From the IMG/VR virus record IMGVR_UViG_3300028483_000002, positions 1-64,000 of that record: a DNA stretch of 64,000 bases, one strand, 5' to 3'. Of the stretch, positions 8,511 to 54,845 are shown one piece after another. Position numbers and translations under genes: made by a program. Source of the DNA: a virus. Taxonomy: Duplodnaviria; Caudoviricetes. Position 1 is the stretch's first letter. Each line of letters begins with the position of its first letter. A model generated the notes under the pieces. That model was not told the DNA's origin. It saw nothing but the letters and a program-made list of their open reading frames with translations, and did not search any database.

Positions 8511-8606
8511 AAAAAAAAGCCGCCTATTCCGAAAAAGAATAAGCGGCTGCCTTTAAAAACACACCATTAATAAATCAATAATACCACAATAAAATAGTTT
8601 TTTCAA
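8511..8606 (-). promoter_or_regulatory. Late leader L1: promoter + TGTGT motif + GCAG-stem terminator
   Basis: TTGAAA(8606-8601)-17-TATTAT(8583-8578); GGTGTGTTTTTAAAGGCAGCCGCTTATTC..GAATAGGCGGC-T8 before hub gene. Confidence 0.75.
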
Positions 8607-8609
8607 TTA

Positions 8610-10634
8610 CTATTTTCTCTCAATAATTTCCATATTTTTAACAGTATCAATTAATATTTTTAGATACTCCACCATTTGACTACGTTCGGTTGGATATAAA
8701 TAACCATCTTCAACTTGCGCTCGTAATCTTGTATATAACTCACTATCTTCCCCGTTTTTTTTAGGGAAAAGTATTTCTGCTTGCAAATAACGTTGTAATT
8801 GCGATAAATCAACGCCTTTGTTATCTGCAATATCTTGTAAAGCTTCTTCATAATTTTGTAGTAAATAATCAGTTAGTTTTTGTTTTCCATCATAAGATGT
8901 AATTCTTGGAGTTTGTTCCACATCTAATTTTTCTCTGTTATAATATAAAGGTTGTGTTTTCATATCATATTTTTGCTGATATTCAGGTAACACATTCTCT
9001 TCGTTTTCATCTCCCAATAAAAAATTTTTTATTGCATCAACACCTTGTGAGATTGGTTCAAGAGCCGCTGTACTCAGCCCCTTCACTCCCATACCAATTT
9101 CTTCTGCTGTTTCTGCAATTCTATTTAATGATTCTTGATTTCTTGTTTCTAAATTTTGATTTTTAGGATCCTTTTGTAACTTTTCAATTTCAGATTGTAA
9201 CTCCGATTCAGAAAGCCCTTTACCTTCTAATTTCAATAATTTAGATACCCCAGTGTAATTCATTCCGGTAATATCTCTTAAATATTCTGCCTTTGCTTGT
9301 ATGTCCCCCCCTGTTCTATCATTCAAAGTTTTCATCAACGAATTAAAAACTTTTCCGTCCTTCAATCCGCGTTCCATCAACATCATATCGTTAAGATACC
9401 CACCATCCTGAATATAATCACCTTCTAGAATAGTTTTTTGTGCTTGTGTATCAAATGCTGATGAGAACGCTTGCAATACCATAACATCGGATGTTTTTGC
9501 CAATGCTGTTGCACCAGCAATTCCATTATTAATTTGATTAAGTCTTTGAGCTCCCCTTTCCCCTGCCCAAAATTGGTCGTTATTAGAAAGTCTACTAAAC
9601 ATTACCATTGTATCGGCAACTTCTTTTGACGAACGAGTAAATCCTTTGGCAATACCATCTTCCATAACTTTTTCTATGCCCATAAGAAATTCACCCATTT
9701 GAGAATCTTCTAAACCACTTGCTTTAGCCGCTCCATACAAATACGAAAAATCGTTGCCAATATCTTTTGAGCCACCATAACGCATCATTTTTCCAGCCAA
9801 ATTGATATATTGGTTTTCATCTCCGTTAGTTGCATAGGCCCACTTTAATGCTGATTGTGCATTAACCCCAGCACTGTCAATATTTTTGACTCCTTGTTTT
9901 GCTAACGCTTGCACATATTGGTTGAACTCCGCATTATCTAAACCCGTTCCAACATTATAATTGTTTAGTCTTTTATATATATCAAAGTTTTCTTGTGATG
10001 AACCATCAAAATTAAAACTTTTTCCTGATTGATTAATTATTGATTCATTGCTAGCATATTTGTCCGAGAAAGCAGTTGCCCCTTTTACAATAGCCCCACC
10101 TATTAACAACCCAGGTATAGCTTTGCCTAATATACCTGCAAATGCATCCATACCATTATTTTTTGCCAAATCCTGAATTTTTGAAACAGAATCAGCAGTA
10201 TTGCTAAAAGCACCTGAAACTGCCCCACCCATATTTCCATGAATAATATTTGATGATAATGAATTCCCGTTGTTAAATAAACCAACTAACAATTGTTCCC
10301 TAGTTTTATCTATTTGTTCTTGGCTTTTATCATAATCTTTGATTGTGCGTCGTACTTTTGGAACATCATCTTTTAAATCTGCAAGTGATTTTGAAAGTTG
10401 TTGAAAATTGTATATAATAGTTGGTAATGATTTTTCAAATTCACCAACTAACATTTTTTGAGATGAATCAGAAAAAGATGGATTGTTTAATATATTTCCT
10501 TGAATGGCTTCAGAGGAAGAAGAATTAGTGTATAAAGGTTGTTGTTGTGTCTGTTTGGTAATATCATCTAATCCACTCTTTACGCTGGATGTATCTAATG
10601 ACACATGACCTTTTATATCTATTTGTGCTGACAT
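8610..10634 (-). CDS. Tape measure protein
   Basis: 674 aa Ala/Gly-rich helical ORF after tail chaperones and before hub. Confidence 0.8.
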   Translation of the reverse strand: MSAQIDIKGHVSLDTSSVKSGLDDITKQTQQQPLYTNSSSSEAIQGNILNNPSFSDSSQKMLVGEFEKSLPTIIYNFQQLSKSLADLKDDVPKVRRTIKDYDKSQEQIDKTREQLLVGLFNNGNSLSSNIIHGNMGGAVSGAFSNTADSVSKIQDLAKNNGMDAFAGILGKAIPGLLIGGAIVKGATAFSDKYASNESIINQSGKSFNFDGSSQENFDIYKRLNNYNVGTGLDNAEFNQYVQALAKQGVKNIDSAGVNAQSALKWAYATNGDENQYINLAGKMMRYGGSKDIGNDFSYLYGAAKASGLEDSQMGEFLMGIEKVMEDGIAKGFTRSSKEVADTMVMFSRLSNNDQFWAGERGAQRLNQINNGIAGATALAKTSDVMVLQAFSSAFDTQAQKTILEGDYIQDGGYLNDMMLMERGLKDGKVFNSLMKTLNDRTGGDIQAKAEYLRDITGMNYTGVSKLLKLEGKGLSESELQSEIEKLQKDPKNQNLETRNQESLNRIAETAEEIGMGVKGLSTAALEPISQGVDAIKNFLLGDENEENVLPEYQQKYDMKTQPLYYNREKLDVEQTPRITSYDGKQKLTDYLLQNYEEALQDIADNKGVDLSQLQRYLQAEILFPKKNGEDSELYTRLRAQVEDGYLYPTERSQMVEYLKILIDTVKNMEIIERK

Positions 10635-10654
10635 TTCTTCTTCCCCCTATTTTT

Positions 10655-11002
10655 TTATTCAAAAGTAGCTTTCGCTATTTCTTCTTCTGAATAACCTAAT
10701 TCTCTTAATGTATCTGCATCTACTTTAGATTCATTTTTTTCCTTTGCTTTTATATAAGCATTTTTGATCATGTCTTTGTCAAAGTTCATATAATACTCAA
10801 ACCAAATATAGAAAAATAAATTATCTAAATTATTATTATTCGAGTTTGTTGCTGCTAATATTGTCGAATAATCCTGGACCACCATCATCTGAAACGTTTC
10901 CCACGGAAGCCACGTCCGAATAGATTCCTTCCCCATTATTTTCAAGGTGTTGTTGCACTTTGAGGCGAAATTCATACGCTTTCGCATACACCTCCTGAAC
11001 AA
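10655..11002 (-). CDS. Tail assembly chaperone partner (overlapping frame; true start uncertain)
   Basis: Open frame overlapping the chaperone 3' end and ending just before the tape measure RBS. Confidence 0.55.
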   Translation of the reverse strand: MFRRCMRKRMNFASKCNNTLKIMGKESIRTWLPWETFQMMVVQDYSTILAATNSNNNNLDNLFFYIWFEYYMNFDKDMIKNAYIKAKEKNESKVDADTLRELGYSEEEIAKATFE

Positions 11003-11348
11003 AACTTTGCAAAGGGATTAATCCCCAAGAAAAGTTTGCATTTTCTCTTTTTGCATTTTCATACCAAGTAGGGCCGGAAATAACCAAGACATCTAAAGTT
11101 GCAATTTGTAACATAATTGATAAAGAAACTTCATCAAAGCATTCAGCAGGAATGTTACTTTGTCTATATGCTTTCAATCTACCAATAGCCTGTAAATCAG
11201 CCATTCTAGGATATTTGATTTTAAATTCCCCCCTAGAAGTTTGAATAGTTTCTGTTACATCTTTTCCCATAACTAACTGATTGAACATACTTGTTTTTTC
11301 AACTTCGTTCAATACTTCTTCTTTTTTTTCGATTTTTTCAAGAACCAT
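10836..11348 (-). CDS. Tail assembly chaperone
   Basis: 170 aa ORF between tube and tape measure. Confidence 0.7.
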   Translation of the reverse strand: MVLEKIEKKEEVLNEVEKTSMFNQLVMGKDVTETIQTSRGEFKIKYPRMADLQAIGRLKAYRQSNIPAECFDEVSLSIMLQIATLDVLVISGPTWYENAKRENANFSWGLIPLQSFVQEVYAKAYEFRLKVQQHLENNGEGIYSDVASVGNVSDDGGPGLFDNISSNKLE

Positions 11349-11371
11349 TTTTTTCTCCTTTTTTCATATTT

Positions 11372-11407
11372 AAAAAAAGGGCTATCTATTTACAGTAGCC
11401 CCCTTTT
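11372..11407 (-). terminator. Intrinsic terminator after tail tube gene
   Basis: GGGGCTACTGTAAATAGATAGCCC followed by T7 on minus strand. Confidence 0.7.
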
Positions 11408-11420
11408 GTTTTTTTATACC

Positions 11421-11957
11421 CTATACTTCTGCATCTGTTTGAGCTTCATAATCTGCACCAGAACTCATATCCAATGCTTCAAAACCTACGTTTCCTTTAA
11501 CGTAAGTTCCACCCTGCATTGTTACAGAGAATGAGTTTGGTACAAGTGTATCGACAGAAGCGATAATTAGTTTTTTCTTTTCATCGTAAAAATCAAGATA
11601 TTTAAACTTAGAAACGACATTACCTTGTTTAAAATCTTCTGATTTAGGATTAAAAGAAGAAATAGAAACTGATCCCCCGCCATTCAATTTTTCAGTACCT
11701 GAATATACTTTAGGACTCGCTAGAAATCCTGTTAGTCTACCAGAAACAGAAATTGCTTGTGGGTCAATTGATGCAGGGAAGATAGAATCTAAAACTTGTG
11801 CTCTTTGAGTTTGGATTTGTTTTGTCATTTCTGCACTATCAACAAATCCAATAACTTTTGCGTCTGCTGCAGATGTTCCAACACGAACTTGGCATCTATA
11901 CCCAATTGTAAAAATTGATGATGCAATACCATGTGTATATTGTGCGATTCCACTCAT
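11421..11957 (-). CDS. Tail tube protein
   Basis: 178 aa beta-rich ORF immediately after sheath. Confidence 0.8.
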   Translation of the reverse strand: MSGIAQYTHGIASSIFTIGYRCQVRVGTSAADAKVIGFVDSAEMTKQIQTQRAQVLDSIFPASIDPQAISVSGRLTGFLASPKVYSGTEKLNGGGSVSISSFNPKSEDFKQGNVVSKFKYLDFYDEKKKLIIASVDTLVPNSFSVTMQGGTYVKGNVGFEALDMSSGADYEAQTDAEV

Positions 11958-11971
11958 TATCTTCCTCCCTT

Positions 11972-13711
11972 TTAAATTTCAACAGTTGAAGTGTAAACGT
12001 GATTTACTGCTGTAATAAATACAAAATTAACCGGAGCTGTTAGATAACGTGAATAAGTAAGATATATCTTATCCCCATCAATTCTGCATTTTATATTCCA
12101 AACATTGTCATTTGAATCATTTGGAACAATATAACCATTCAAAGCCCATTCTTTTGCTCTATCAATCAGTGTTTTTATTGCTTCATTTGTTGAAACTCCT
12201 GAACCACCAATAATAGGAATAAATTGAGCTCTTAAATCACGATTCATAAATAAATCTTCACGAACCATAGAACGTTCATTATTGATTAAGTCATCCCCTT
12301 GGAATGTAGTAACCGAACGAACACAAATATATTCAGCCAAATTCTCTGGATTAGGATTACATACTGTAATACCAGCACGAATTAAAGAAGTTATGTTAGG
12401 AATATCCCGAATTTTTCCAAACGAAAGTACATTAAGAGTTTTGAATGTTAATGGCGTTGAAGGCGACATAGCGCTCTCCATAGCTGCTAACATTACTCCT
12501 AACCTAGCACCTGTAATTGTTTCTATTTTTCCAGAAATGGCATTTGTTTTAGTTGCATTGTCAATTACATACGATACTAATTTATTATTCAAACCTTGTG
12601 CTGTATTAATACCATCTGTATCAGCCATACCAATTCCGCCACCAAGGATAGCTGTTCGTTCTTTTCTATTAATAGTAGAACTCATTGATGTACAATGTGA
12701 AGAAATCAAAGACAGAACACTAGCATCTGTAGATGGAGTAGAAATTATCTGAATATCTTCTACTTCAAGGGCTTTCAATGCTTGTTGCCATTGTGTGATG
12801 GTGTAAGAACCAATTGTTCCCCCTGTAAAGTAAATGTAACTCTCTGTATTATCAGGAACTTGTCTTGTTGTTGTTTCAAGAATTTCTAAACCACCAATTA
12901 ACGACATCTTGTTCAAAGCATTAATGAATGCATCAAAGTTAGCATAAAGTTGTAAACCATTGTCAATATCAATAGGTGAATTAGTAATTGTATCAAGTTT
13001 ATATGATGATAAATCAACATCATCTGCAATTGCTTGATATGAATTAGAGTTATTGATAGCTGATACAAGAGAATCCAATGTGTCAAAATCTTCAAAACTT
13101 AAAGTTAATTCATCAATAGCAGTTGGCTCACTTCCTTCTTCTGGAATTGATTCAGCAACAAAAGAAATAGAATTATTGTTGATAGTAACAGTTGCATTCT
13201 GTCCTTCACCATAGTAAACAACATTCATTGCTTTTTTTACAATGTTATCTACTTCTTCTTGAATTTCTTTGTACACTAAATTAATTTTTTTTGAATTTTG
13301 TGCTGTTCCATCACTAATCATAATTTTTAGTTGATTAGTGTGAACTCCGTAATCCCAAGATTTAATTTCAATTGTTGGAATACTTCCACTTTGCAATGTT
13401 ACTGATGATTGTGTACCATCATTTACACGCATCGCAAAAACTCTCTGTGGAATATAAACATTTGAAGCTGTAAAAGCATCCCCTATAGCGTCCAAAAGTT
13501 CTCCACCTACAAGAGCCTCTTGTGCAGATGCAACACCATCGAATTCTAACAATTCAAAAGGTTTTCCACCGTTTGATTTACCAAGAATTACCATATTGCC
13601 TGCTGAAACACCACTAGGGCTAGATGTATTATAACTTCTTGAATAAGACCCTGGCACCCAATGTTCTGTTCTTTGGCCACCACTCTCAAAAATTGCTGGA
13701 CCTACACCCAT
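11972..13711 (-). CDS. Tail sheath protein (SPO1/Twort-like length)
   Basis: 579 aa; N-terminal HWVPGSYSR, C-terminal sheath motifs (VRSVTTF..NERSMVRE). Confidence 0.92.
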   Translation of the reverse strand: MGVGPAIFESGGQRTEHWVPGSYSRSYNTSSPSGVSAGNMVILGKSNGGKPFELLEFDGVASAQEALVGGELLDAIGDAFTASNVYIPQRVFAMRVNDGTQSSVTLQSGSIPTIEIKSWDYGVHTNQLKIMISDGTAQNSKKINLVYKEIQEEVDNIVKKAMNVVYYGEGQNATVTINNNSISFVAESIPEEGSEPTAIDELTLSFEDFDTLDSLVSAINNSNSYQAIADDVDLSSYKLDTITNSPIDIDNGLQLYANFDAFINALNKMSLIGGLEILETTTRQVPDNTESYIYFTGGTIGSYTITQWQQALKALEVEDIQIISTPSTDASVLSLISSHCTSMSSTINRKERTAILGGGIGMADTDGINTAQGLNNKLVSYVIDNATKTNAISGKIETITGARLGVMLAAMESAMSPSTPLTFKTLNVLSFGKIRDIPNITSLIRAGITVCNPNPENLAEYICVRSVTTFQGDDLINNERSMVREDLFMNRDLRAQFIPIIGGSGVSTNEAIKTLIDRAKEWALNGYIVPNDSNDNVWNIKCRIDGDKIYLTYSRYLTAPVNFVFITAVNHVYTSTVEI

Positions 13712-13735
13712 TTTTTCTCCCTCCCATTATTTTAT

Positions 13736-13951
13736 TTATCTAATGTTTGTTTTCATTAAGTCAGAAACAGTTTGATCCCATTGTGTTTTTGTTTGAATTT
13801 TTTTTGGATATAACTGTTTTAATAAGTTTGAAATATAAATATCTTTTGGATATAACTGTAGATATTTATACACACCCATCTTTCTGTTATCATTCGCAAC
13901 AGTCATTACACCTACCGTTGGAACATTCTCAGATTTAATTTTCTTTGACAT
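13736..13951 (-). CDS. Small tail-region protein
   Basis: GGGAGG RBS then ATG 13951 (MSKKIK..); small ORF before sheath. Confidence 0.6.
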   Translation of the reverse strand: MSKKIKSENVPTVGVMTVANDNRKMGVYKYLQLYPKDIYISNLLKQLYPKKIQTKTQWDQTVSDLMKTNIR

Positions 13952-14762
13952 GATTGATAACCTCCCATACAATTTCTCTGTTTATATTGTTTATTTCAGT
14001 ATCTAAAATAATTTGTGAAACATTATAATCCACCTCAAAAGTAATATGTGATCCAGATAAAAGAACATCAAAATCAAAATTGTAATTACTACTTCTTTCA
14101 CCCTGTACATTTTGCCCAAAAATAGATGGTGTAAACATTTTATATTTTTCATGTAAAATTCTGTCCAAAGAACAAGTAAACATTAAACTTAAATGTTCAT
14201 ACAATTCATCTTTTAACTGATCGTTCTCACACCATATTTCAACAGAAACTTTATCCCTTTTTCTTGTATCAATTTTTAAACCATAAACACCACCAATCTC
14301 ATCTCCAACAGTTCTGCTATCTGCCAATTGTTTTAATTCATCTATCCGTTCTTTGTCGTATATCAATACATAACCGGGAATATTTTCTTTTAATGGTTGC
14401 CCATTTCTATCGGTTAAAACTTCAACAACTCCACTTTCGTTTATGTACGTTCTATCTCTTGTTGTTTCAGAAAAAATTTCATCAAAATCTTGACTTGTCA
14501 ATTTGACAACACTATTTGTTTCAAACATTTCTTGCATTTCAGGAACTTTACCGTCTGACTGAGATGTTATTACAATAGATGGAAATGTATCACCTGCCCT
14601 TGTGTTATCTTCTAATATCATGTGCGCAAAAGGATGTTCATTCGTAACATGGAAATGAAAGTTGTCATATACAGATTCAAGATGCAACCTTTCTATATAT
14701 GTTCTAGTTACATCTACTAGAGCCTGTTCCACAACAAAACCAAAATTAAGATAATAAATCAT
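13935..14762 (-). CDS. Neck/tail terminator-like protein
   Basis: 275 aa; DTFPSIVIT motif; position before sheath. Confidence 0.6.
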   Translation of the reverse strand: MIYYLNFGFVVEQALVDVTRTYIERLHLESVYDNFHFHVTNEHPFAHMILEDNTRAGDTFPSIVITSQSDGKVPEMQEMFETNSVVKLTSQDFDEIFSETTRDRTYINESGVVEVLTDRNGQPLKENIPGYVLIYDKERIDELKQLADSRTVGDEIGGVYGLKIDTRKRDKVSVEIWCENDQLKDELYEHLSLMFTCSLDRILHEKYKMFTPSIFGQNVQGERSSNYNFDFDVLLSGSHITFEVDYNVSQIILDTEINNINREIVWEVINHVKEN

Positions 14763-14785
14763 CCTTAAAACTCCCCGAAAAAAAA

Positions 14786-14903
14786 CAAAAAAAAGGCAGC
14801 TAAAAACTTAATCTTTATTTAGATTAAATTTCTAGCTGCCCTTTTTAGACACACTAATAAAAATGTACAATAATATAATAATTTATTTATCAACTGTTGT
14901 CAA
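14786..14903 (-). promoter_or_regulatory. Late leader L2: promoter + TGTGT motif + GCAG-stem terminator
   Basis: TTGACA(14903-14898)-17-TATTAT(14880-14875); AGTGTGTCTAAAAAGGGCAGCTAG..TAGCTGCC-T8. Confidence 0.8.
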
Positions 14904-14906
14904 TGT

Positions 14907-15758
14907 TTACATATTTCTATACATTTCTTCATCTTGTTTCAAGCCTAAAGAAATTAAACTATCAATATCTGATTTAACAGCATTAGTCAATGCTCCAATA
15001 ACATCAATAGAAGGTTTTGCAGGTTTTTTATAAATCCAACTTCCTTCTGGAGATTTTGCAGAAATAATTCTAAATGTAAAATATGTACTACCCGTAACAT
15101 CTTTCATTCTAACCATTCCAACACTTCTATCATTCCACGCATTATCTTCTGTTAGCCTTCCTTTCTTAGCCCAATCATAACCTTGTCTTTCGACATCTAA
15201 ACCTTTATAGTTTTTTTCACTATATTTTTTGAATACGTTTACATAAGATAAATTTAATCCTTTTACAGCAGAATTATATGCTTTTTGTGGAATAAAATTG
15301 TTAAAATGAGCCCTTTTTGTGTTTTTATCGTTAGGTGTTCCCCACCTAAAAGGTATAATCAAATATGGAACACCTTTTTTACTTACCCTTGATTTATTAC
15401 CATAAGGATGAGTTTGTTTCATGTCATATTCAACAGCCTTAGAACCTTTTATTTTAGATTCTAATTGCATATTATTTGATCCAACAGAATAATGAAAACT
15501 ACCTTTTTTTTCTAATCTTAATGATTGCACAATTCTACTTGTTACACCGTCTAAATATGGAATTCCCGGTAATTCTTCCGTACCTTTTAAATAATTAGAA
15601 AATCTTTGATAAACATATCTTCCTGCCATCTCAAAAGCATTAGCTGTATTTGGCAATGCAGCTTCTGGAGAGTTCTTAAAAGAGTTTTCGAATTCATTTA
15701 CAAATTCTTTTAATTCTGATAAATCATAATCAATTTTTATTTGTGTCATTCCCCTCAC
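14907..15758 (-). CDS. Neck / tail completion protein
   Basis: 283 aa; KKGVPYLIIPFR and YFTFRIISAKSPEGSWI motifs; synteny. Confidence 0.6.
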   Translation of the reverse strand: MRGMTQIKIDYDLSELKEFVNEFENSFKNSPEAALPNTANAFEMAGRYVYQRFSNYLKGTEELPGIPYLDGVTSRIVQSLRLEKKGSFHYSVGSNNMQLESKIKGSKAVEYDMKQTHPYGNKSRVSKKGVPYLIIPFRWGTPNDKNTKRAHFNNFIPQKAYNSAVKGLNLSYVNVFKKYSEKNYKGLDVERQGYDWAKKGRLTEDNAWNDRSVGMVRMKDVTGSTYFTFRIISAKSPEGSWIYKKPAKPSIDVIGALTNAVKSDIDSLISLGLKQDEEMYRNM

Positions 15759-15761
15759 CCT

Positions 15762-17000: not shown

Positions 17001-17010
17001 AATTTCACTC

Positions 17011-17628
17011 CTATTGATAAACGCTTGAATCAGAATATATTTGATGATATTTTTTTACATCAAATAAACTTTTAAAACTAAATTTTCCCAATCTTATATT
17101 TTTAGCAGAGTAATATCCAATCAATGGAGGGCACCATGTTACAAGATCACTCCAATGTGCATATTGTTCAATTTTATTAAAACATCTTTTTGCTTTTATT
17201 TTGGTAAATAAACCAAACAAAGGCTTTGGACTTCCAAATGTAATCAAATCTATCTTTTTACCTGTTGCCTCAAATATTTCAATCCCACAAATTTGAGCAA
17301 TAGCCCCGCCAAAACTATACCCGCAAATTTGAACTTTATAATTCGGATAGTAATACATACAATTCAAAATAGAATGTAAGACAATACCTTTTGCACTCTC
17401 CCAACTAATCCACCACCCTTTAGAAAACCAATATGGGCAACCGCCTATTATTACTGGTAAAAACATAAAAACAAAATTTAAAATCCAATCTGTTTTTTGC
17501 CTAGATTCTTGGAACATTACTCTTATAACTTGTTCTTCATCAACAACTTCAATCTTCCAATCTAAATCTTTACCATTGTGATTATAATGAATAGCTCTTA
17601 AATGATTAAACAATTCGTACGGCAACAT
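17011..17628 (-). CDS. Class 3 lipase-like alpha/beta hydrolase
   Basis: VQICGYSFGGAIA nucleophile elbow (GxSxG), ITFGSPK, DLVTWCPP motifs. Confidence 0.85.
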   Translation of the reverse strand: MLPYELFNHLRAIHYNHNGKDLDWKIEVVDEEQVIRVMFQESRQKTDWILNFVFMFLPVIIGGCPYWFSKGWWISWESAKGIVLHSILNCMYYYPNYKVQICGYSFGGAIAQICGIEIFEATGKKIDLITFGSPKPLFGLFTKIKAKRCFNKIEQYAHWSDLVTWCPPLIGYYSAKNIRLGKFSFKSLFDVKKYHQIYSDSSVYQ

Positions 17629-17737
17629 TCTTTCACTCTCCTTTTATAAAAAAAACGGTTTTTTTTAATTGGACCGTAAACCAATTTTATTTTAACAGAA
17701 AGCTGAAAAAAACTAAAAAAAAGACTTTCTGCAAAAA

Positions 17738-18877: not shown

Positions 18878-18888
18878 CTTTATTTTCC

Positions 18889-19194: not shown

Positions 19195-19215
19195 CCTCCA
19201 TTTTTTTTATTTTGT

Positions 19216-20667: not shown

Positions 20668-20680
20668 TTTTCTCTCCTCC

Positions 20681-22153: not shown

Positions 22154-22259
22154 TAAAAAAAGGCAGCCACAACGAACTATAAAAAATTCGTTATGACTGC
22201 CTTATAATAAGCACATCAATTATTTAGTAAATAGTATTACAACTAATACTTTTTGTCAA
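22154..22259 (-). promoter_or_regulatory. Late leader L3: promoter + operator B + TGTG motif + GCAG-stem terminator
   Basis: TTGACA(22259-22254)-17-TACTAT; GATGTGCTTATTATAAGGCAGTCAT..GTGGCTGCC-T7. Confidence 0.8.
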
Positions 22260-24136: not shown

Positions 24137-24242
24137 AAAAAAAGCAGCCACAACTATAAAAGTTATGACTGCTCTTTTGAACACATCAAATAAACACATT
24201 AAATATAATTATATTGTTATAATATATTTAAAAAAAGTCAAT
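24137..24242 (-). promoter_or_regulatory. Late leader L4
   Basis: TTGACT; GATGTGTTCAAAAGAGCAGTCAT..GTGGCTGC-T7 before the 610 aa gene; -10 spacing imperfect. Confidence 0.7.
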
Positions 24243-24274
24243 ATCAATTTTCTTTCAACTTTTCATAAATCAAA

Positions 24275-26651: not shown

Positions 26652-26655
26652 TTGT

Positions 26656-27012: not shown

Positions 27013-27015
27013 ATA

Positions 27016-29174: not shown

Positions 29175-29186
29175 ATTTTACTCCGT

Positions 29187-29210
29187 TTAAGTATTAGTTC
29201 TAATACTTTT
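29187..29210. promoter_or_regulatory. Operator B palindrome between MTase and divergent XRE gene
   Basis: AAGTAT-TAGTTCTA-ATACTT; near-identical sites at 22230-22253 and 54813-54836. Confidence 0.7.
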
Positions 29211-29289
29211 TATAAAGTATAGCATATTAAACGTTTTGTCAACAAAAAGTTTAGTAATTTTTATTACACTTTATGCCGATAATATTATT

Positions 29290-29499
29290 ATGAATTTAGA
29301 AACACAAGAATTTTGGATTAGAGTTAACAAATTAACAAAAGAAAAGAAACTTACACAAATCAAACTTTGTGAAAAATGTAACATTGCGTTGCCCACTTAC
29401 AAGGGATGGATAATGAGAGGTATATATCCAAACGCAAAGCAGGTTGTAGACATGGCAAAAATCTTAGAGACAACACCTGATTTTTTGGTCTATGGGTAA
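29290..29499 (+). CDS. XRE-family HTH regulator 1
   Basis: LTQIKLCEKCNIALPTYKGW..YPN..VDMAKILETTPDFLVYG; ATG 29290. Confidence 0.88.
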   Translation: MNLETQEFWIRVNKLTKEKKLTQIKLCEKCNIALPTYKGWIMRGIYPNAKQVVDMAKILETTPDFLVYG

Positions 29500-29563
29500 A
29501 ATATTTTATTGACAATTAAAATATTTTATATTAATTTAAGTTTAATTATTACGTTGTAATAAT

Positions 29564-29610
29564 TAAGGTTGGTAAAAAGAGTCTCCGTTCTGTTTACCAA
29601 CCTTTTTTTA
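29564..29610. terminator. Intrinsic (likely bidirectional) terminator between XRE1 and the large polyvalent gene
   Basis: AAGGTTGGTAAA..TTTACCAACCTT followed by a T run. Confidence 0.7.
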
Positions 29611-29614
29611 ATTT

Positions 29615-32600: not shown

Positions 32601-32713
32601 TATCCTTTCCCAGCCTTTTTTGGAATTCTTCTGATGTATTTATGACTTCTTCCTGATTTTTCGATGAAGTTATCCCAATACATTTTTGCAAATGTTTTTG
32701 AAACTGTAAACAT
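29615..32713 (-). CDS. Large polyvalent-type protein (~1030 aa), putative head cargo
   Basis: RBS before ATG 32713; IEKS-GRSHKYIRR..GYNYIY N-terminus, multiple small domains, VKKS-LFYIK C-terminus. Confidence 0.7.
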   Translation of the reverse strand: MFTVSKTFAKMYWDNFIEKSGRSHKYIRRIPKKAGKGYNYIYPKDFKSPLKTLMAIFGIKEEKITDAYVRNNIESAYGVTKNEFGAHVLEYLSNKKVWDKFFSDKFNRDRYKTPSNKKEKSSNSKQKIIDQEKKEKQTLTSNDEKNFETKWNNSLMRKIYSMYNSVPEDKKVELNNTLDFDIGDKVSFNGATGSITNLVSDKMVMVKFDDGKVARLFVKDLQKLNPTNQEVANEAEENGQKQEHGNSIALLNNDNAKKDITVIEDPIKEGYQYNFEGKVWTIVGFDKNDAPIMTSKDGERIEFDSMEEFDSYYQSGEITNAADNGLNTSTPQTSLNAAIGNYTISKDNFDYLMGKVAEVYEDSNGEWDDRNYARLMANSIKRDPLFMNNLVNIIAGAKVDDLSTFLLDLKKQYDNGGKFVAKKDFLDERGQQKKLKYKDIVEDFSKEELQNIWENIKDEREKQWEHGITTDLLESYVHRWSNAIHNGDTVELYKIFSLLEDENYHTEGQLLLDGNYSELYKIIENRKRQDEVWKMKNGILDRIKNNQTVGDKFFDELRNRTTNSLEHGAIDEAEKQYNQDKEMEQYRLESNRWDEYNDSYNKTREDYKNDFAELSLDEIKKLRDKISVPDSKEMYDIVTSDGSGKELGEKRAKADMLDELIAGYQQSAGIFAPSVIGNLPSRITLADIERELKTQSSHDVMTKLYETKTGYSYWGHRKDPKDEEQWKNVQEIGRILEAQKNGLKVVNGNVVSKVKDTTTGQEIKEGDIVKISNSYTKGENGLFRIGNVANNGTHFNLIKLNKDGSESKSYGGSWPLNHSYHSNPNYRYEYRKQNGENGENVKIELTTIDEKLKEKAKAKAKEVKPYQFTVNGIRKPDGEYVSVYYGIGDVNGPIKVHSDRYGSSLGFLSSETDKVENNSDIMTDYFEKDSITISPSNPYYNQVKRAALKNSVTNMKKQLASAKEDVERYSGNTNYYNGEYYLKQAQENLKTLPGKISTYEAELKKVEKELKPKTVKKSLFYIKNGRFYIRIN

Positions 32714-32734
32714 TTTCTCCCCCCCCCTTATAAA

Positions 32735-32815
32735 CAAAAAAGGCAGCTATCAAAAAACAAGTATTATTACTTGAAATTTGATAACTGCCTTTGTTTTAGA
32801 CACATTATTTAATAA
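32735..32815 (-). promoter_or_regulatory. Late leader L5
   Basis: AATGTGTCTAAAACAAAGGCAGTTATCAAA..TTTGATAGCTGCC-T6; promoter boxes weak. Confidence 0.7.
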
Positions 32816-32861
32816 AAGACTATCACATATTTATTAATTTCTCGCTTCTTATAAAAAGAAT

Positions 32862-33032
32862 CTATCTTATTCTTATATCCCCATATTTTTTTAGATATGC
32901 TTTTAACGCATCTACAACCTCTTTAGGCGTATTTTCTTTTAAATTATCTAATGTTTCATCTTTACTTGGATCAATTAAATATTTTCGCCAAGGAAACATT
33001 TTTTCATAATCGCCAGGATTGCTTGTTATCAT
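32862..33032 (-). CDS. Small 56 aa protein immediately after the peptidase gene
   Basis: AGAGGT RBS, ATG 33032 (MITSNPGDYEK..). Confidence 0.6.
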   Translation of the reverse strand: MITSNPGDYEKMFPWRKYLIDPSKDETLDNLKENTPKEVVDALKAYLKKYGDIRIR

Positions 33033-33036
33033 TATT

Positions 33037-34503
33037 TTACCTCTTAATTGCATTATATTCCATTTTTGCAAGTTGTACAATCCTTTTACTAAATGGGCTT
33101 GCGTTTTCGCCATATTGGTATACATCAGCAAAGGCTTCTGCAAATAGTTCCATATCAGTTTCTTCTGCATAATCAGAAATAGTAAGTTTAGCATCTTCAT
33201 AAGACATACCATTTAATTGAGTTTGTCGTATTTGTTCGTATGCTTTTTTACAAATTTCTACATCAGAATACATTCCATTATTTTTTAATAATGCTGCTAA
33301 AACATGAGCTCCTTCATGATACCCAAATGATTCTGCATTTAATTGCTCATCCCCTGCATGAAAATATATATTCTTATCTTCCTCTTTTTTTGTTCCATCT
33401 TCAATTATAAACTTAGATCCAAAACTTATTTCTATTGGTTTTTCATTAATAAATTGAACACACATTATACAATTTTCTCTCGTAATTCCAATTCTTGGGA
33501 TTAATTTTTGAACTAAAGGAAACTCATCAAGAAATTCAAGTAACCCAATAGAACATTTTTTCGTATCTTCAAACATTGCTCTTTTTTTTAAGTCGTCAGA
33601 AACTTCAATGCCATATTTATTTACTATATTTTCATAATCATCAAAGTTTCTTGCTTTATTTAATATATTTTTAGAAGTATCTCTTTTATTATATTCTTTA
33701 TGATAATTTTTAAATAAATCAATTCTTTTTTCAATATAGTTTGCTGCATTTACTACCTTTTTATTAGGAATCCCTTTTGATATTAAAAATTCTGAAACCC
33801 TTTCAATAACATTTTCTGTCGTAACATCTTTGTTTAATATTTTTCGTAATACAGTTTTATATTCTTTTTGAACTAGTTTATCCCCAATAAATAATTTAAA
33901 ATAATTTTGTATAGATTTATTGTTTCCTTTTAGTACACCTTGGTTTGGGAATTTTATAACACTGGTAATAAAATTTTCTCTCTCTTTAGAAATATCAGAA
34001 ATATTATTAAAAGTAGTTTTGCTAGTATTAAGTTTAGATTTACGTTCATTCACAGCATTTTTTAATTCTTCTACAATCGGCAGTAATTTACCATCGCTAT
34101 CCATAAATCTATTTGTATTTTCCATGACAAGTTGCAATAATTCATCAATACTTTTTGCATTTTCAATTTTCTTCTTAATAATTGCAATTGATTGATTTGC
34201 TCCCCTAGAATGCACATCATAGATTTTTCGCCATTTTCCAGGAGCAATTTTTCTGTATTTATGCCCTTTCCACTCTCTAACAGTTCCTATACCATATCCC
34301 CTAGATTTATTAATGCTATATTCAGTTAAAAATGTACGAGCCATTGAATTATCATAATCTTCAATCGCTTTACTAATTATCTTTTCTTCTCTTACTTCAC
34401 TTTCTTCTAAGATTTTTAACAACTCTTTTTTAAAGTGATTCAAAATCCTATTTGAATGTTTGTTTATTAAATTGTCATAAACACTTTTCTTTACTGTAAT
34501 CAT
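33037..34503 (-). CDS. Putative head-packaged zincin metallopeptidase
   Basis: Start 34503 (MITVKKS); shared GYGIGTVR-W domain; C-terminal GYHEGAHV..SDYAE..ELFAEAF. Confidence 0.75.
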   Translation of the reverse strand: MITVKKSVYDNLINKHSNRILNHFKKELLKILEESEVREEKIISKAIEDYDNSMARTFLTEYSINKSRGYGIGTVREWKGHKYRKIAPGKWRKIYDVHSRGANQSIAIIKKKIENAKSIDELLQLVMENTNRFMDSDGKLLPIVEELKNAVNERKSKLNTSKTTFNNISDISKERENFITSVIKFPNQGVLKGNNKSIQNYFKLFIGDKLVQKEYKTVLRKILNKDVTTENVIERVSEFLISKGIPNKKVVNAANYIEKRIDLFKNYHKEYNKRDTSKNILNKARNFDDYENIVNKYGIEVSDDLKKRAMFEDTKKCSIGLLEFLDEFPLVQKLIPRIGITRENCIMCVQFINEKPIEISFGSKFIIEDGTKKEEDKNIYFHAGDEQLNAESFGYHEGAHVLAALLKNNGMYSDVEICKKAYEQIRQTQLNGMSYEDAKLTISDYAEETDMELFAEAFADVYQYGENASPFSKRIVQLAKMEYNAIKR

Positions 34504-34526
34504 TTCATACCCCACCTTAAAATTGT

Positions 34527-37271
34527 TTACAATAATTCCGGGAATACTCTTACCCATGAACCTCTACACCACGGATGAACAGTTGCAATTGGAGCATCAC
34601 CATCCAATTTGCCTTCCCATATCGCATATTTTGCATAAGGATCTTTTATTCTTTCGTTTGGCAATGGAACATCACTCCACAATGCAATAGCACCTTTTAA
34701 TTTTTGGCACTTTTTACAGGTGTTGTCATCTAACACTTCATAGCGTTCAAAATATACCTTTTCTTCTGGTTTGGTGTTGTACACTTCTTCTTTGATATAA
34801 GCTGTATTTGTTGCAATTTGTAATTCTGTATCAGCGATTCGTTGCATATCCCTATTCAAACTTGCGCATTTATCAAATAAGTTTTGAGCCACAACCGACT
34901 TGCTTGATTTGTCTCTTACACCATCAATTATTATTTGTTGGATATTATTTCTCATATCATCTTTAACACGTGTAACTCTTTGAGTTGCAGAATCAATTGC
35001 AACTTGAATTCTTGCAGCCCTTTCTCTAGTGATACTTTCCCCAAAAACATCTTTTATGTTTTTAACACTCTCACTTATCCAATCAACATCTTTTCTTTTT
35101 ATTTTTAATTCAGACAGGTGCATTTTTTTTATTGCAGATAAAGAATTTGTTTTACTTAATCGTTCCAATATAGCACCTAATGCTTCGCCACTCAGAACAA
35201 TTTTTTCACCAATACCAGAATAATTACGATTTAGAAACTTTTCTAATTCTGTAATAAAACGTTGCCATTCTTTAGTTGATATTGGTTTACCATTTTCAGG
35301 ATTGTAAATAACCTTACCTTTCCATTTCAATTTAGCTTTACTTACAATTCTTATATCAGGTAAATCAAAATAAGAAATCACAAAATTATAAATTGCTAAA
35401 GTTTTTTGAGATAATTCTCTAAACAATTTATCTGTCAGTTCTTCTTCGGCCTTGTACAAAAACTTTTCACCTTGTACAGTTTTCATGTTTGTATCTAAAG
35501 ACAATGAAACTTTATGCAGAGCTTTTTCAATTTTTTCTTTGTCAAAATTTGTAAATCTCAAATATAAATTATCATATCTTGTAGATTTATTATCAGATTG
35601 AATATGTTTAATTACAAAAGGTTTATTTTCGTAAATTGCATTAAGAGCCTTTTCTAATTGTTCATACTTTTTTTGTTTGTTATTTTCTGTAATATCAGTT
35701 ATACAAACATCAAAGGATTTATGTATTCTACTACCTTGTTTTGAGAATACAAAAGACTTAAATTGTTCTACAGTTAAAGTTTCCATACTTCCAAAAAATC
35801 CTGGTCTATCATATTGTTTCATATATGCTTTTTTTGCTGCTTCTGCATTTTCAAAACACAACATACATTTATCTTCATCGTATTTATGAGTAACAGGATT
35901 GTTTTGATGAATTACATAAACTTTTTTTGCGTTTTTATCAGGACCAATATAACAATCTACAAAGTCTGAATCAGTCCCTACAGTTCCCCTAATATATCCA
36001 TAATCATAGTGCATTAAAGTTTTCCACTTATGCCCATCTGAATCAACACCACTTCTATAAGTTCCTTTTTTATTTTCAATGGAAATATCCATGCCATAAA
36101 GTTTAGTTCTACCCTGTAATTTATGGCCGGAATAAGTTAAAGATTTTGTTAAAGCCTTATATGCTTTGTACGCAATTACATTTTCTACATCTTGATGCAA
36201 TTGTTCTTCTGCTACAAACCTTGTCAATTTATCATCATACTTCTGAATAACAGAATCATAATTTAAGCCTTTTTTATCACAAAGATGATGTAATTCTACT
36301 TTCCAATCAGTGAATAATGATTTTGTAACATTTTTACTTGACAAATTATTACAATGCACTATATTAATAGATGGAGATAGACTACAATCCGGTTGTAGTT
36401 GTAACGCTTTATTAAGCTGTCTCCCCTTAAATCCCTTGCTATTTTGCAAGGGATATTTTTTTAACAAAAGTTCTACAGAGTAGACTAACTTACCTGTAAT
36501 TTTATATTCCTTAATTGTAATATATGCCATTCCTTTTCTTGTAGATAATTGAATAGGTATATTTCCTCTGTAAATAGATTCTACGTTGTCATCACCTTTC
36601 CTATCTGGATATTTCTTAAAGTTTTCAACATTTTCAACAAGTTCTTTTATCTTTGATGCCGCTTCAAAATGCTCTTTTGTTGAAAAACCATTTAGAACAG
36701 ATTTATTTATAGCTTTATCACAAGATAATTTATCAATAGATTTTTGAGAAAATCTAAATGTTAAATCTTTATTATGAAAGTTAGTCTGTTTATATTTTAC
36801 CATTTCTTTCTTAAATGTATTTCTAAGCTCTGTTCTTAAAAGATATTCATTATGATCAATTTTTAATACTTTCCAAGCCGGAATTTTTTCATTTTCATTT
36901 TCTTTGTTTATAAAAATATAATCGTGAGAACCATTTATATAATATTCATATAAATCATACTTAGTCTTATCTAACTTAAATTTTATTGGTTTTTGTTTTT
37001 CATCGGAAAGACCCTTTAATTTTTTTATTCTTATTCCATAAACATCAGCATCATATTCATATACCCAATGCCCATTTACCCATCTTTTATTACGATATTT
37101 ATGTGATTTTTGTATTTCTTTATCATTTTCAGAATATAAGTCCGATTTTTGCAGATTTTCTGCAAATTCGTCATTTAAATTATCTTTTTTTTCATTTCTA
37201 ACTTGCTTATAACTTTCTAATTTCTTTTTAATTTCTTCTGCAACAGATTTTTCAATTACTATTTTTCCCAT
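34527..37271 (-). CDS. MuF head-morphogenesis protein with N-terminal LPD3/BECR-like and inorganic pyrophosphatase-like domains
   Basis: C-terminal IADTELQ..DDNTCKKC..HPWCRGSW (MuF); GHKLQGR..SIENKKG..HYDYGYIRGT.GTDSDFVDCYIGP (InPase-like); HFEAASKI..YPDRKGDDNV..YITIKE (LPD3-like). Confidence 0.8.
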   Translation of the reverse strand: MGKIVIEKSVAEEIKKKLESYKQVRNEKKDNLNDEFAENLQKSDLYSENDKEIQKSHKYRNKRWVNGHWVYEYDADVYGIRIKKLKGLSDEKQKPIKFKLDKTKYDLYEYYINGSHDYIFINKENENEKIPAWKVLKIDHNEYLLRTELRNTFKKEMVKYKQTNFHNKDLTFRFSQKSIDKLSCDKAINKSVLNGFSTKEHFEAASKIKELVENVENFKKYPDRKGDDNVESIYRGNIPIQLSTRKGMAYITIKEYKITGKLVYSVELLLKKYPLQNSKGFKGRQLNKALQLQPDCSLSPSINIVHCNNLSSKNVTKSLFTDWKVELHHLCDKKGLNYDSVIQKYDDKLTRFVAEEQLHQDVENVIAYKAYKALTKSLTYSGHKLQGRTKLYGMDISIENKKGTYRSGVDSDGHKWKTLMHYDYGYIRGTVGTDSDFVDCYIGPDKNAKKVYVIHQNNPVTHKYDEDKCMLCFENAEAAKKAYMKQYDRPGFFGSMETLTVEQFKSFVFSKQGSRIHKSFDVCITDITENNKQKKYEQLEKALNAIYENKPFVIKHIQSDNKSTRYDNLYLRFTNFDKEKIEKALHKVSLSLDTNMKTVQGEKFLYKAEEELTDKLFRELSQKTLAIYNFVISYFDLPDIRIVSKAKLKWKGKVIYNPENGKPISTKEWQRFITELEKFLNRNYSGIGEKIVLSGEALGAILERLSKTNSLSAIKKMHLSELKIKRKDVDWISESVKNIKDVFGESITRERAARIQVAIDSATQRVTRVKDDMRNNIQQIIIDGVRDKSSKSVVAQNLFDKCASLNRDMQRIADTELQIATNTAYIKEEVYNTKPEEKVYFERYEVLDDNTCKKCQKLKGAIALWSDVPLPNERIKDPYAKYAIWEGKLDGDAPIATVHPWCRGSWVRVFPELL

Positions 37272-37326
37272 TTTATCTCCTTTTAAATAAACAAGGGAAA
37301 TTTCCCTTAATTTCCATTAATTTCCC

Positions 37327-37527
37327 TTATTTCGACATTTTCTTTTTACACAAATTCTTTAATCTAAACTTCCAATCACAAATAAAGTATTGTTCATAAT
37401 GCTTTTTATATTCCCCACCACTACCAACTCTTTCTTTACGACATCTTTTATTTGCTTGTCTTTTAAAAAATTGTTTATGTTTGCCATTATCTTTTACTAT
37501 TGGAGTTTTTCGATAACTTCTACTCAT
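37327..37527 (-). CDS. Small basic conserved phage protein
   Basis: MSRSYRKTP..KRQANKR..GGEYKK. Confidence 0.6.
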   Translation of the reverse strand: MSRSYRKTPIVKDNGKHKQFFKRQANKRCRKERVGSGGEYKKHYEQYFICDWKFRLKNLCKKKMSK

Positions 37528-37676
37528 GATTAAATTCCCCACAATCACATTCATCATCAGATTTTTTATGTGTAAATAAATCTTGCAATAGACAAAAACC
37601 TTTATTTTGTTTTAGAGCTTCCTTATGTTCGTACTCTCCGATTATATCAGTTTCTTCTACCCACCAAGTACAATTT

Positions 37677-38093
37677 TTACATTTTGTGTCCATATTCAAC
37701 TCCCCCTAATTGATTTGCCCAATTTTCAGGAAAGCCGCTGTAATACCAAACATCTCGCTGTGAATAAGTCCATTTTTTATGAAACAATCTATCAAATATA
37801 TTTCTTGCAACAGACGGAATTCCAACAATTAATAAATATAACCAACCTAACTTTTTGGATTGTAAAGAATACCCATATTCGTGTCTTAACGTGTTGTATA
37901 AATCCCCTGAAGAATAGTTAGAATCAATAATAATGTACTGCCCTAAACTTACCCCAAAATCAAAAAAATTATTAATTGAATAACATATTATTCCTGATAT
38001 TTCATGTTTTTTACCAAACAAAGATAAAACAAAACCTAAAATATTTTGGGGAAGTTGCCACACATACAAAACGAAAGCGATTAAATATTTCAT
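37677..38093 (-). CDS. Membrane protein of HEYGH-type family
   Basis: WQLPQNILG..GVSLGQYII..HEYGYSLQSKKLGWLYLLIVGIPS. Confidence 0.65.
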   Translation of the reverse strand: MKYLIAFVLYVWQLPQNILGFVLSLFGKKHEISGIICYSINNFFDFGVSLGQYIIIDSNYSSGDLYNTLRHEYGYSLQSKKLGWLYLLIVGIPSVARNIFDRLFHKKWTYSQRDVWYYSGFPENWANQLGGVEYGHKM

Positions 38094-38103
38094 TCTTTAT
38101 CTC

Positions 38104-39684
38104 CTAAATAAACAACATTGATTTATTAATTGATTTATTCATATCTTCTGGTAACATTGGTTCTTCCATATCTTCTGGTAACATAGGCTCATCTGCATCA
38201 GACTGTTCTTCCATTCCCAAATCACCACCTTGCATATCATCTTCATTACCCATGCCACCCATACCATCTTGGGCTTGTTGTGATTGGAATAATTGAGTTA
38301 ATTGAACATTCATAGGTAAATCAGCAGGATTTTCTATTTTTGATAAATCAATTGGACCAAGCCCTTTTTCTTCTCTTTTTTCGTTGATACTTTTCCAGGT
38401 TCTAACTTCTTTTTCATCCAAGTCTGCTACAGTGTTTGGATTATCTTTTTCATAGCCTACAAACTCGATAACATATTCTGGATTAATTCTTTTAATTATT
38501 TTATTAAGATAAGATTCTAAAAATGTTAATAAATCACCTAATAGAGCCGATTTTGCAGCTTGAATTCTATCCCCACCACCATTTTCAAACATAGCTTGTG
38601 ATTTTTGAGATTGGATTCCTAATTCATCGGCACTACAACCAAACAAAGCCATAACACCACTAGACAGATAATCTAACCATTGTTGGAATTCCATATCTCT
38701 ATTAGTGTTAATTGATTTCCATTCGATTGAACTTTCTTTTGTTCCCGATGGCATAATTGGAATTCTCCATTGATTTAATGGTCCACCACTCATAATTTCT
38801 GCAATGTAATCTTCCATCTGTGCTATAACAGTATCATCTGCTTCACCATTAATTAAAAACATTCCTTTTGGCAGTTTATTTTCAGTAAAGTTTCCAGAAT
38901 TATACACAAAAGTATTAATTTCTGATGTAATTAAATCAATTGCTTGTTCTACATACGAATAACCATATTGAGAATGGTAAATGTCTGTTCTTGGATTTTG
39001 AAAATCAAAGACCATATTATCCATCGTATATCCGGCGGCAGGCATACCTTCTACGATTTGCAAAAACTTAAAATCTGTTTTGTTGTTGCTATCATCAATA
39101 ACTCTTTCGATTGTTGCAGCGTCAACAGCGAAAAAAGCAACTGCATCACCTTTTTTATTATATTGAATTTCCGTTGCAACTTGATCCAATGTTAAAATAT
39201 CTCTAATAATTTTTGTGGCATACTTTACTAAATCATCTCTAGTTAAATCTTCATAATCTCCGGTATTACAAATAAAATCTCTAATACGTTCAATTTCTTT
39301 TTCATCTTGATTTTTAGATGTTATATCTTCAAATTTTTTATGAATTAAAAAACCTCTCTCATTTCTAGCTGTTACAGGTTTTAGGTAGGGCTTAATTTTT
39401 CGTATAACATGTACAATACAACAGTTAATAATCCATGCTTTTTGAGCAACAGCTCTTAAAGTTCTACAATGGATTCCCCCACATTGAATTCTAGACATCG
39501 TTCTGATGCCATCAAAAGCGTTAGAAGCAACAAAATAAGGATCATAAAAAACAGAATCAGCTCCATGTTCACGCCCTTCGTCCTGAAAAAAATACTGATT
39601 AAATATCTTATTTCCTTCTGCCATTTTGTTGTATGCAACTCTTTTAGCTAAAAGTTTATCCATATCAATTTTCTCTCTAGCCAT
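38104..39684 (-). CDS. Portal protein
   Basis: Start 39684 (MAREK); VDAATI, YGYSYVEQA..YNSGNF..PKGM, MEFQQW motifs. Confidence 0.92.
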   Translation of the reverse strand: MAREKIDMDKLLAKRVAYNKMAEGNKIFNQYFFQDEGREHGADSVFYDPYFVASNAFDGIRTMSRIQCGGIHCRTLRAVAQKAWIINCCIVHVIRKIKPYLKPVTARNERGFLIHKKFEDITSKNQDEKEIERIRDFICNTGDYEDLTRDDLVKYATKIIRDILTLDQVATEIQYNKKGDAVAFFAVDAATIERVIDDSNNKTDFKFLQIVEGMPAAGYTMDNMVFDFQNPRTDIYHSQYGYSYVEQAIDLITSEINTFVYNSGNFTENKLPKGMFLINGEADDTVIAQMEDYIAEIMSGGPLNQWRIPIMPSGTKESSIEWKSINTNRDMEFQQWLDYLSSGVMALFGCSADELGIQSQKSQAMFENGGGDRIQAAKSALLGDLLTFLESYLNKIIKRINPEYVIEFVGYEKDNPNTVADLDEKEVRTWKSINEKREEKGLGPIDLSKIENPADLPMNVQLTQLFQSQQAQDGMGGMGNEDDMQGGDLGMEEQSDADEPMLPEDMEEPMLPEDMNKSINKSMLFI

Positions 39685-39709
39685 CTTTCCCTCCCAAAAA
39701 TATTTAAAA

Positions 39710-39800
39710 TAAAAAAAAACAGCCACTTATTCCAAAAAAAATAGAATAAAATGGCTGCTTGTTATAAACACACCTAATATTTAATTCATTTTATAACATT
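39710..39800 (-). promoter_or_regulatory. Late leader L6
   Basis: Extended -10 TGTTATAAA; GGTGTGTTTATAACAAGCAGCCATTTTATTC..GAATAAGTGGCTG-T9 before portal. Confidence 0.75.
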
Positions 39801-54842: not shown

Positions 54843-54845
54843 TTA

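Follow-up and report, generated by a model that had tools for sequence, protein, structure and literature searches.

How virion genes that lie directly behind strong intrinsic terminators could be expressed is the question raised by IMGVR_UViG_3300028483_000002, a 73,579-bp IMG/VR virus record (91% complete, 30.8% G+C; hereafter G000). The window, meaning the whole stretch of DNA analyzed here, comprises bases 1-64000 of this record. An earlier reading made from the letters alone (the sequence-only reading) had noticed that six late-gene leaders in the window share a motif, TGTGY-N(5-9)-GCAG, placed directly before a terminator, and had proposed multi-site late antitermination. We find that the motif is complementary to the base of the terminator that follows it and can form with it a small hairpin, named P0; this complementarity is a new finding. 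Each late transcription unit may be gated by a promoter-proximal terminator with P0 as a built-in antiterminator hairpin, locked conditionally by a factor, a proposal drawn from the anatomy of the leaders to which we give slightly less than an even chance. Phage late control is known mainly from a few models, namely lambda Q, sigma-like factors, RinA, Alt and Ogr activators, and we know of no information on late-gene control in spirochaete phages.

Late leaders in which a motif is complementary to the terminator base

The six TGTGY...GCAG strings are all present, on the minus strand, with TGTG starting at positions 8563, 14853, 22215, 24185, 32804 and 39772. The conserved unit is longer than TGTGY, and the spacer is written N(5-12) here. 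Searching the window with a loose form of the motif gave nine matches versus 2.5 expected, a number reached in 0 of 100 shuffles. The remaining three matches (31685 on the plus strand; 35860 and 53011 on the minus strand), which sit inside coding sequence without a hairpin, look fortuitous.

At all six sites the motif runs, as had been claimed, into a terminator: one long hairpin with a folding free energy (dG) of -19.0 to -30.3 kcal/mol, followed by a run of six to nine T. All six hairpins have the anatomy of an intrinsic terminator, a GC-containing stem-loop with a U-run directly after it, and the ribosome-binding site (RBS) and start codon lie 10-45 nucleotides (nt) past each T-run. The GCAG of the motif belongs to the RRCAG-Y of the hairpin base, which pairs fully with CTGYC at four sites and partly at the hub and portal sites. 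Near-consensus promoters had been described at three sites; sigma-70-like promoters with at least 10 of 12 matching positions are found at four of the six. The repeated order of promoter, motif, strong intrinsic terminator and RBS thus stands, and it is kept in relatives. No promoter was found between the T-run and the RBS at the six sites, nor is there room for one; by the logic of this anatomy, expression of the late genes, capsid included, would need read-through of the leader terminators.

The nucleotides T2-G3-Y4-Y5-(N) of the motif form the complement of (N)-R-R-C-A, the stretch of 4-6 nt that opens the terminator 5' arm. The resulting P0 hairpin of 4-6 bp excludes the terminator base, since the two share these nucleotides. 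Pairs were counted in 47 non-identical leaders by a script anchored at both ends; a MAFFT alignment of the leaders placed gaps beside CAG, and its columns were unusable for this purpose. The third P0 pair forms in all 47 leaders (U·G in 24, U-A in 14, C-G in nine). C at Y4 occurs solely with GGCAG, never with GACAG, and this combination recurs in separate lineages (G000/G001, L029, L032/L033, G022 and G024). The fourth pair forms in 41 of the 47 (C-G in 22, U·G in 11, U-A in six, A-U in two), and its A-U versions (TGTA...TACA, in G022) are double changes. Of the 141 cells at the three variable positions, 117 pair, against 100.4±2.9 when partners are permuted among leaders (maximum 110; 0 of 10,000 permutations reach 117), figures that describe a consistent pattern and no true probability, because the leaders are related by descent and are subject to homogenization within genomes. 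Slid registers give 60-85 pairs versus 117 in the proper register. The minimum-energy fold of the isolated leader is P0 in most cases, with a mean dG of -3.0 kcal/mol versus -1.0 kcal/mol for shuffles.

Conservation across related phages

The close relatives of the major capsid protein are found on IMG/VR contigs and on contigs of Treponema metagenome-assembled genomes (MAGs), one of them within a 159-kb Treponema contig, and the host is therefore probably a gut or rumen Treponema. The comparison set consisted of about 12 related phage and prophage records whose probable hosts are Treponema. Across these relatives the consensus reads G/A at -2, A/G at -1, T-R-T-G-Y-Y, an A-rich spacer, RRCAG-Y at the hairpin foot, CTGYC on the 3' arm and a T-run; typical forms of the unit are GATGTGTCAAAAAGACAG, TATGTTCTGAAAAGGGCAG, GATTTGTCTTGCAAAGGCAG and GATATGCGAAAGCAG. 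Per-base conservation over 38 sites shows G at -2 in 29, A or G at -1 in every site and C never at +1, with no positional information upstream of -2. These preferences are real conservation, because the search pattern made no selection for them. Position +1, which lies outside P0, is uniform within a phage and differs between phages (G in G000, G001, G022 and G023; A in G005 and G024; T in G009), as would fit a phage-specific reader.

The sites are positionally orthologous in eight records, where they precede the portal, MuF and cargo genes, the protease-capsid pair, the 275-aa (amino acid) neck gene and the 455-aa hub gene, at major capsid protein identities to G000 down to 47%. Each phage has 4-9 sites, all within the virion-gene region. 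Orthologous terminator stems keep their pairing through compensatory changes, and the base, GRCAG/CTGYC, is conserved. The element is restricted to phages: its pattern is concentrated on the prophage contigs of four host MAGs (2.5-3 Mb), which have only a few scattered, coding-looking matches elsewhere, and a scan of all IMG/VR contigs found it in about 13 contigs of one clade.

A promoter with at least 10 of 12 matches lies within 75 nt upstream of 28 of the 38 sites, compared with 1.5% of random windows from the same genomes, and a perfect TTGACA accompanies 16 of the 38 versus 1.9% of control windows; about a quarter of the clade sites lack a good promoter. The motif lies anywhere from 8 to 43 nt past the -10 hexamer but always within 1-14 nt of RRCAG, which assigns it to the terminator and not to the promoter.

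Several other readings of the motif were considered and rejected. A leader peptide starting at the RTG inside the motif would be encoded by open reading frames (ORFs) of 2-36 aa with arbitrary stops and no Shine-Dalgarno sequence. An extended -10/TRTG promoter element or a -10-like pause element does not fit hexamers that lack A2/T6 and have no fixed upstream -35 or -10. Nor is the motif a copy of the host boxA: the Treponema rrn leaders (L053, L054, 16S) and the 16S-23S spacer (L052) share TCTTTGACAG followed by GGGAAGGAA, presumably the Treponema boxA and its adjoining sequence, and the late motif shares only GACAG with TCTTTGACAG. The complement of GATRTGYY, as expected of an RNA pairing with the motif in trans, is not enriched and occurs in no leader. 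Rfam gave nothing at gathering score over the whole window and only chance-level matches at E <= 5 over positions 8400-40000.

Terminators and leaders without the motif

Equal occurrence of the motif at ordinary gene-end terminators, which the sequence-only reading had named as a point that would tell against it, was not found. A strong late-region terminator at 11349-11420 (minus strand, after the gene for a 178-aa protein) and a terminator-like structure at 17629-17737 (minus strand, after the gene for a 379-aa protein) have neither motif nor promoter, and the motif is therefore no general property of the terminators of this phage. The genes behind the 11349-11420 terminator have no promoter of their own.

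Structured leaders that end in terminators also follow early and middle promoters on the minus strand, at 44638-45182, 54670-54845, 58418-58610 and 59800-60221, with -35 positions that include 45160, 54842 and 58610. Their stems (GGCTCAAG..., GCCGTCTTG..., GCTAATCAT...) are unlike the late ones. In the RecT leader (54670-54845), the hairpin loop CCCACA is complementary to TGTGGG of the terminator loop. Promoter-proximal terminators seem to be the general control style of this phage.

A model for late-gene gating and its alternatives

In the mechanism we propose, transcription would begin at a sigma-70-type promoter, and the nascent RNA would first fold P0, of the form 5'-GAUR-[UGYY(N)]-A-rich loop-[(N)RRCA]-GY, which spans 4-6 bp at a dG near -3 kcal/mol. 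Since the 3' strand of P0 doubles as the foot of the terminator 5' arm, the two structures would compete for these 4-6 nt beside the U-tract. The terminator helix is much the stronger and should by default win and displace P0; polymerase would then stop at U6-U9, about 50-100 nt from the start, leaving the late genes off, and the leader terminator would also insulate the unit from its upstream neighbor. We envisage that a sequence-specific factor, encoded most likely by the phage itself, binds the unpaired GAUR together with P0 and locks P0. With P0 locked, the bottom 4-6 bp of the terminator could not form, the stem would fail to reach the U-tract, and polymerase would read through. Because one code is common to all 6-9 leaders of a phage, a single factor could switch on all late units together. 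A phage-encoded reader is the simplest guess, since host genomes do not use the element, and a reader that recognizes sequence is favored because UG/CA is invariant, though any pair would serve the structure, because the unpaired GA is conserved and because +1 is uniform within a phage.

Several observations weigh against the locked-hairpin model, in addition to the relatedness of the leaders that limits the permutation figures. Two of the P0 pairs are invariant and hence silent on pairing, and T-A pairs arise easily in A/T-rich leaders. At hub-type sites the overlap between P0 and the terminator stem is just 1-3 nt. P0 is weak next to the terminators and alone should not prevent termination. 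Searches for a trans-acting protein also came back empty, which bears out the earlier statement that no antiterminator is identifiable here: in the six-frame translation of the 73.6-kb, 91% complete record, the Q families PF03589, PF06530 and PF06323 had no match at E <= 1 and the ANTAR domain had no match; the CAT RNA-binding domain (PF03123) had no match in the phage record, host genomes lying outside that search; and Pfam and PHROGs scans of about 60 proteins returned no RNA-binding antiterminator.

Processive antitermination, as in the lambda Q, AlpA and lambda N systems, would explain part of this anatomy differently: the motif, as DNA or as boxB-like RNA, would load a factor onto polymerase, which would then ignore the adjacent terminator and later ones. 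In lambda, pR'-tR' has the same layout of promoter, terminator and late genes, and AlpA works in this way at two operons (PMC7969949). Here the motif lies within the early transcribed region at most sites, P0 is boxB-sized and several phages have GAAA loops; moreover, expression of the downstream tail genes also demands passage of the motif-less terminator at 11349-11420, which this account would explain. The lambda pR'/Q parallel drawn in the sequence-only reading is nevertheless not supported as a mechanism. The DNA site that Q and AlpA require has a set position within the promoter, whereas these motifs stand at variable distances from the -10, or have no good promoter at all, and stay close to a hairpin with whose base they covary. 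The motif also lacks the A2/T6 signature of a -10-like pause element and differs from the host rrn boxA, Q-family domains were not found, and a processive factor needs neither a conserved terminator base nor complementarity to it. That complementarity points instead to an RNA element tied to each terminator, similar to RAT (ribonucleic antiterminator) or nut sites, and away from a promoter-linked loading site of the Q kind; we regard processive antitermination, which would leave the complementarity unexplained, as unlikely.

On what would be the conventional view, the leaders might also work with no dedicated regulator, as partly leaky insulating terminators that stabilize the 3' ends of upstream mRNAs beside booster promoters, with P0 as a decoy arm in cis that tunes the leak. 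Partial terminators inside late operons are widespread among phages, the hairpins at two sites are terminator-like on the opposite strand too, and the searches for Q, CAT and ANTAR proteins gave nothing. Yet efficient termination is expected of stems of -19 to -30 kcal/mol followed by U6-U9, and the capsid operon lies behind a terminator of -28 kcal/mol. The terminator arm should quickly displace a helix of 4-6 bp, and a simple decoy would not account for the conservation of unpaired GAUR, for the invariance of UG/CA or for a +1 base that is uniform within each phage. We consider this account improbable to about the same degree as the processive one. Far less probable still is that the 45-70 bp units are module-boundary linkers through which homologous recombination swaps cargo and structural cassettes, a role that would account for their conservation in place of gene expression. 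The near-same hairpin GGCAGTCATRAC...GTYGTGGCTGCC does recur at different sites and in different phages, the cargo genes between the sites are the least conserved, and the phage carries RecT and YqaJ recombination genes. However, the conserved sequence is short (about 20 nt at most) and covaries as RNA pairs, its orientation to the genes is always the same, and a functional-looking terminator is always included; a role as recombination linker could be a side effect rather than the function.

Candidate trans-acting factors

The Pfam and PHROGs scans identified repressors, antirepressors, recombination and replication proteins, methylases, a sliding clamp and a lysin. N proteins escape profile search because of their small size and divergence, and small basic ORFs are present in the record, for example at 37327-37557, inside the late region. 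The early ORFs also include one of 186 aa (39820-40380) and small Cys-rich ones at 40-43 kb. The one protein that we put forward is a 63-aa CxxC...HxC zinc protein, as a candidate only (Table 1). It is among the non-structural genes common to all fuller genomes and lies immediately upstream of terS in the relatives, a slot where phages of Gram-positive bacteria usually carry their late regulators. Homologues of 56-63 aa (L011:11649-11816, L016:5729-5908, L067:10184-10366 and L068:8108-8287) keep C4, C7, Y13, I14, E27, T33, G36, R37, Y42, H45 and C47 invariant. The protein matches no Pfam or PHROG family, a homologue search gave one near-identical sequence only, and its AlphaFold model (mean predicted local distance difference test score, pLDDT, 59.8) is too poor for a fold search. 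Two further proteins were set aside as regulators: a 268-aa core protein (52101-52907), which resembles a DUF968/HNH-type nuclease, and a 136-aa protein with a TFIIB-type zinc ribbon (51354-51764, minus strand; Pfam PF08271, 32.7 bits, above cut-off), which occurs in G005 and is not conserved across the clade.

The fullest form of the locked-hairpin model, which we offer tentatively and think somewhat doubtful, is that an undescribed phage-encoded RNA-binding antiterminator, for which the 63-aa zinc protein is one candidate, locks the hairpin of 4-6 bp that overlaps the base of 6-9 promoter-proximal terminators, so that one protein and one RNA code would turn on every late unit in this Treponema phage lineage, the early leaders having separate, individual codes.

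Comparison with known antitermination systems

Among the closest designs is that of the RAT sites of BglG, SacY and LicT. With LicT and SacY, a locked RAT hairpin blocks the terminator. Like P0, RAT is a small, weak hairpin just 5' of a terminator, each regulated terminator has its own copy, and locking would prevent termination; the P0 pairing supplies the overlap of the antiterminator hairpin with the terminator 5' arm that characterizes RAT. Unlike RAT systems, the phage record has no CAT domain match, P0 measures about 15-20 nt versus the 29-nt RAT consensus, and six to nine sites precede phage virion genes where a sugar operon has one. To our knowledge, the terminator-overlapping hairpin is known from bacterial sugar operons and not from phage late operons.

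The nut sites of lambda N (boxA plus boxB) resemble the late leaders in that a short single-stranded motif is followed by a hairpin of 4-6 bp whose loop is rich in A and sometimes reads GAAA, in leader RNA not far past the promoter, with several sites per genome. They differ in that P0 overlaps the terminator, the motif is not the host boxA and no N-like protein is recognizable. P0 has the right size and purine-rich loops for a boxB, but no GNRA-like loop is conserved across the clade.

Lambda Q at pR'-tR' and AlpA share with the late leaders a constitutive-looking promoter that meets an intrinsic terminator at once, before late or lysis genes. AlpA of Pseudomonas gates several operons through promoter and terminator and reads DNA between -35 and -10 (PMC7969949). 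That placement of the element is fixed in the Q and AlpA systems, whereas the spacing between the -10 and the motif downstream of it varies here, and the motif pairs with the terminator. The late leaders thus have the promoter-proximal terminator of a Q-type system, but no Q-family protein, fixed binding element or -10-like pause element was found. The put sites of HK022 are likewise RNA elements in cis that lie just after promoters and let polymerase pass terminators, but put is about 70 nt long, has two stem-loops, acts protein-free and does not overlap the terminator, while P0 is one short hairpin. ANTAR systems use two tandem hexaloop hairpins, in contrast to the one small hairpin per leader here. 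We therefore call the element a variant of transcription attenuation/antitermination that falls outside the Q, nut, RAT, ANTAR and Rfam families compared.

Features of the record

Nearly all genes of the window lie on the minus strand. Their transcription order begins with a CI-like repressor, antirepressors, RecT/YqaJ, replication genes, SSB, TerS and TerL, and continues with the portal, a MuF-like 914-aa protein, large and poorly conserved cargo proteins, the prohead protease, the major capsid protein and the tail genes. In the GenBank phage collection, the 379-aa protein has a single, distant match, to Leptospira phage LE1. The coordinates of the late leader elements, their putative promoters and the candidate factor are collected in Table 1.

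Table 1. Late leader elements, predicted promoters and candidate factor in the window (coordinates of G000).
Feature	Coordinates	Strand	Description
Portal leader element	39711..39774	-	Motif and P0 39754-39774 (GGTGTGTTTATAACAAGCAGC); hairpin 39717-39760, then T9; portal ATG about 30 nt on
Portal promoter	39788..39816	-	Weak sigma-70-like, TATACA-17-TAAAAT
~1040-aa cargo leader element	32736..32806	-	Motif and P0 32784-32806; hairpin 32739-32792, then T6
~1040-aa cargo promoter	32819..32827	-	Extended -10 only (TGTGATAGT), no good -35; weakest of the six
610-aa cargo leader element	24137..24187	-	Motif and P0 24168-24187; hairpin 24141-24175, then T7
610-aa cargo promoter	24219..24247	-	Sigma-70-like, TTGATA-17-TATTAT
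Protease and major capsid leader element	22155..22217	-	Motif and P0 22196-22217; hairpin 22160-22203, then T7
Protease and capsid promoter	22231..22259	-	TTGACA-17-TACTAT; spacer holds operator-like palindrome AAAGTATTAG-N4-AATACT (22233-22252)
275-aa 'neck' leader element	14787..14855	-	Motif and P0 14835-14855; hairpin 14792-14843 (dG -30), then T8
Neck promoter	14875..14903	-	TTGACA-17-TATTAT, 11/12 positions
455-aa 'hub' leader element	8511..8565	-	Motif and P0 8546-8565; hairpin 8518-8548, then T8
Hub promoter	8578..8606	-	TTGAAA-17-TATTAT with TG extension
63-aa CxxC...HxC zinc protein	47871..48062	-	Candidate trans-acting factor only; clade-wide, just upstream of terS

The sequence upstream of the ~1040-aa cargo site is near-identical in the relative G001. 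The RBS region of this cargo gene contains a nine-G run (TAAGGGGGGGGGAGAAAATG, about 32716-32745, minus strand) and the record ends in a C11 run; runs of this kind could be prone to slippage or sensitive to assembly.

The operator-like palindrome AAAGTATTAG-N4-RATACT has three copies in the window versus 0.27 expected: in the spacer of the capsid promoter (22233-22252), just after a promoter at 29.2 kb (29190-29209) and in the spacer of the RecT-operon promoter (54816-54835). The 29.2-kb copy adjoins a divergent gene for an 87-aa helix-turn-helix (HTH) protein (29236-29499, plus strand). This distribution looks like that of one repressor acting on early, middle and late promoters.

Three small plus-strand genes for HTH repressor-like proteins stand amid the minus-strand operons (29236-29499, 58646-58915 and 60261-60587), and two of them are kept in most relatives. 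Beyond the window, a complete DNA polymerase III beta sliding clamp with all three domains is encoded at 67377-68483 on the minus strand (L051:3377-4483), near a PAPS-reductase-like gene, a C5-cytosine methylase gene and an adenine-methylase-like gene.

Significance

A whole phage lineage appears, from the arrangement of its leaders, to gate each block of virion genes separately with the same terminator-overlapping hairpin. The comparative data already define the mutations by which such a switch can be tested. Confirmation of this gating would bring to light a new RNA element, probably along with a new antiterminator protein, and would provide a compact, portable promoter-terminator switch. 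The gating would also explain how a temperate phage can keep consensus promoters silent in the lysogen.

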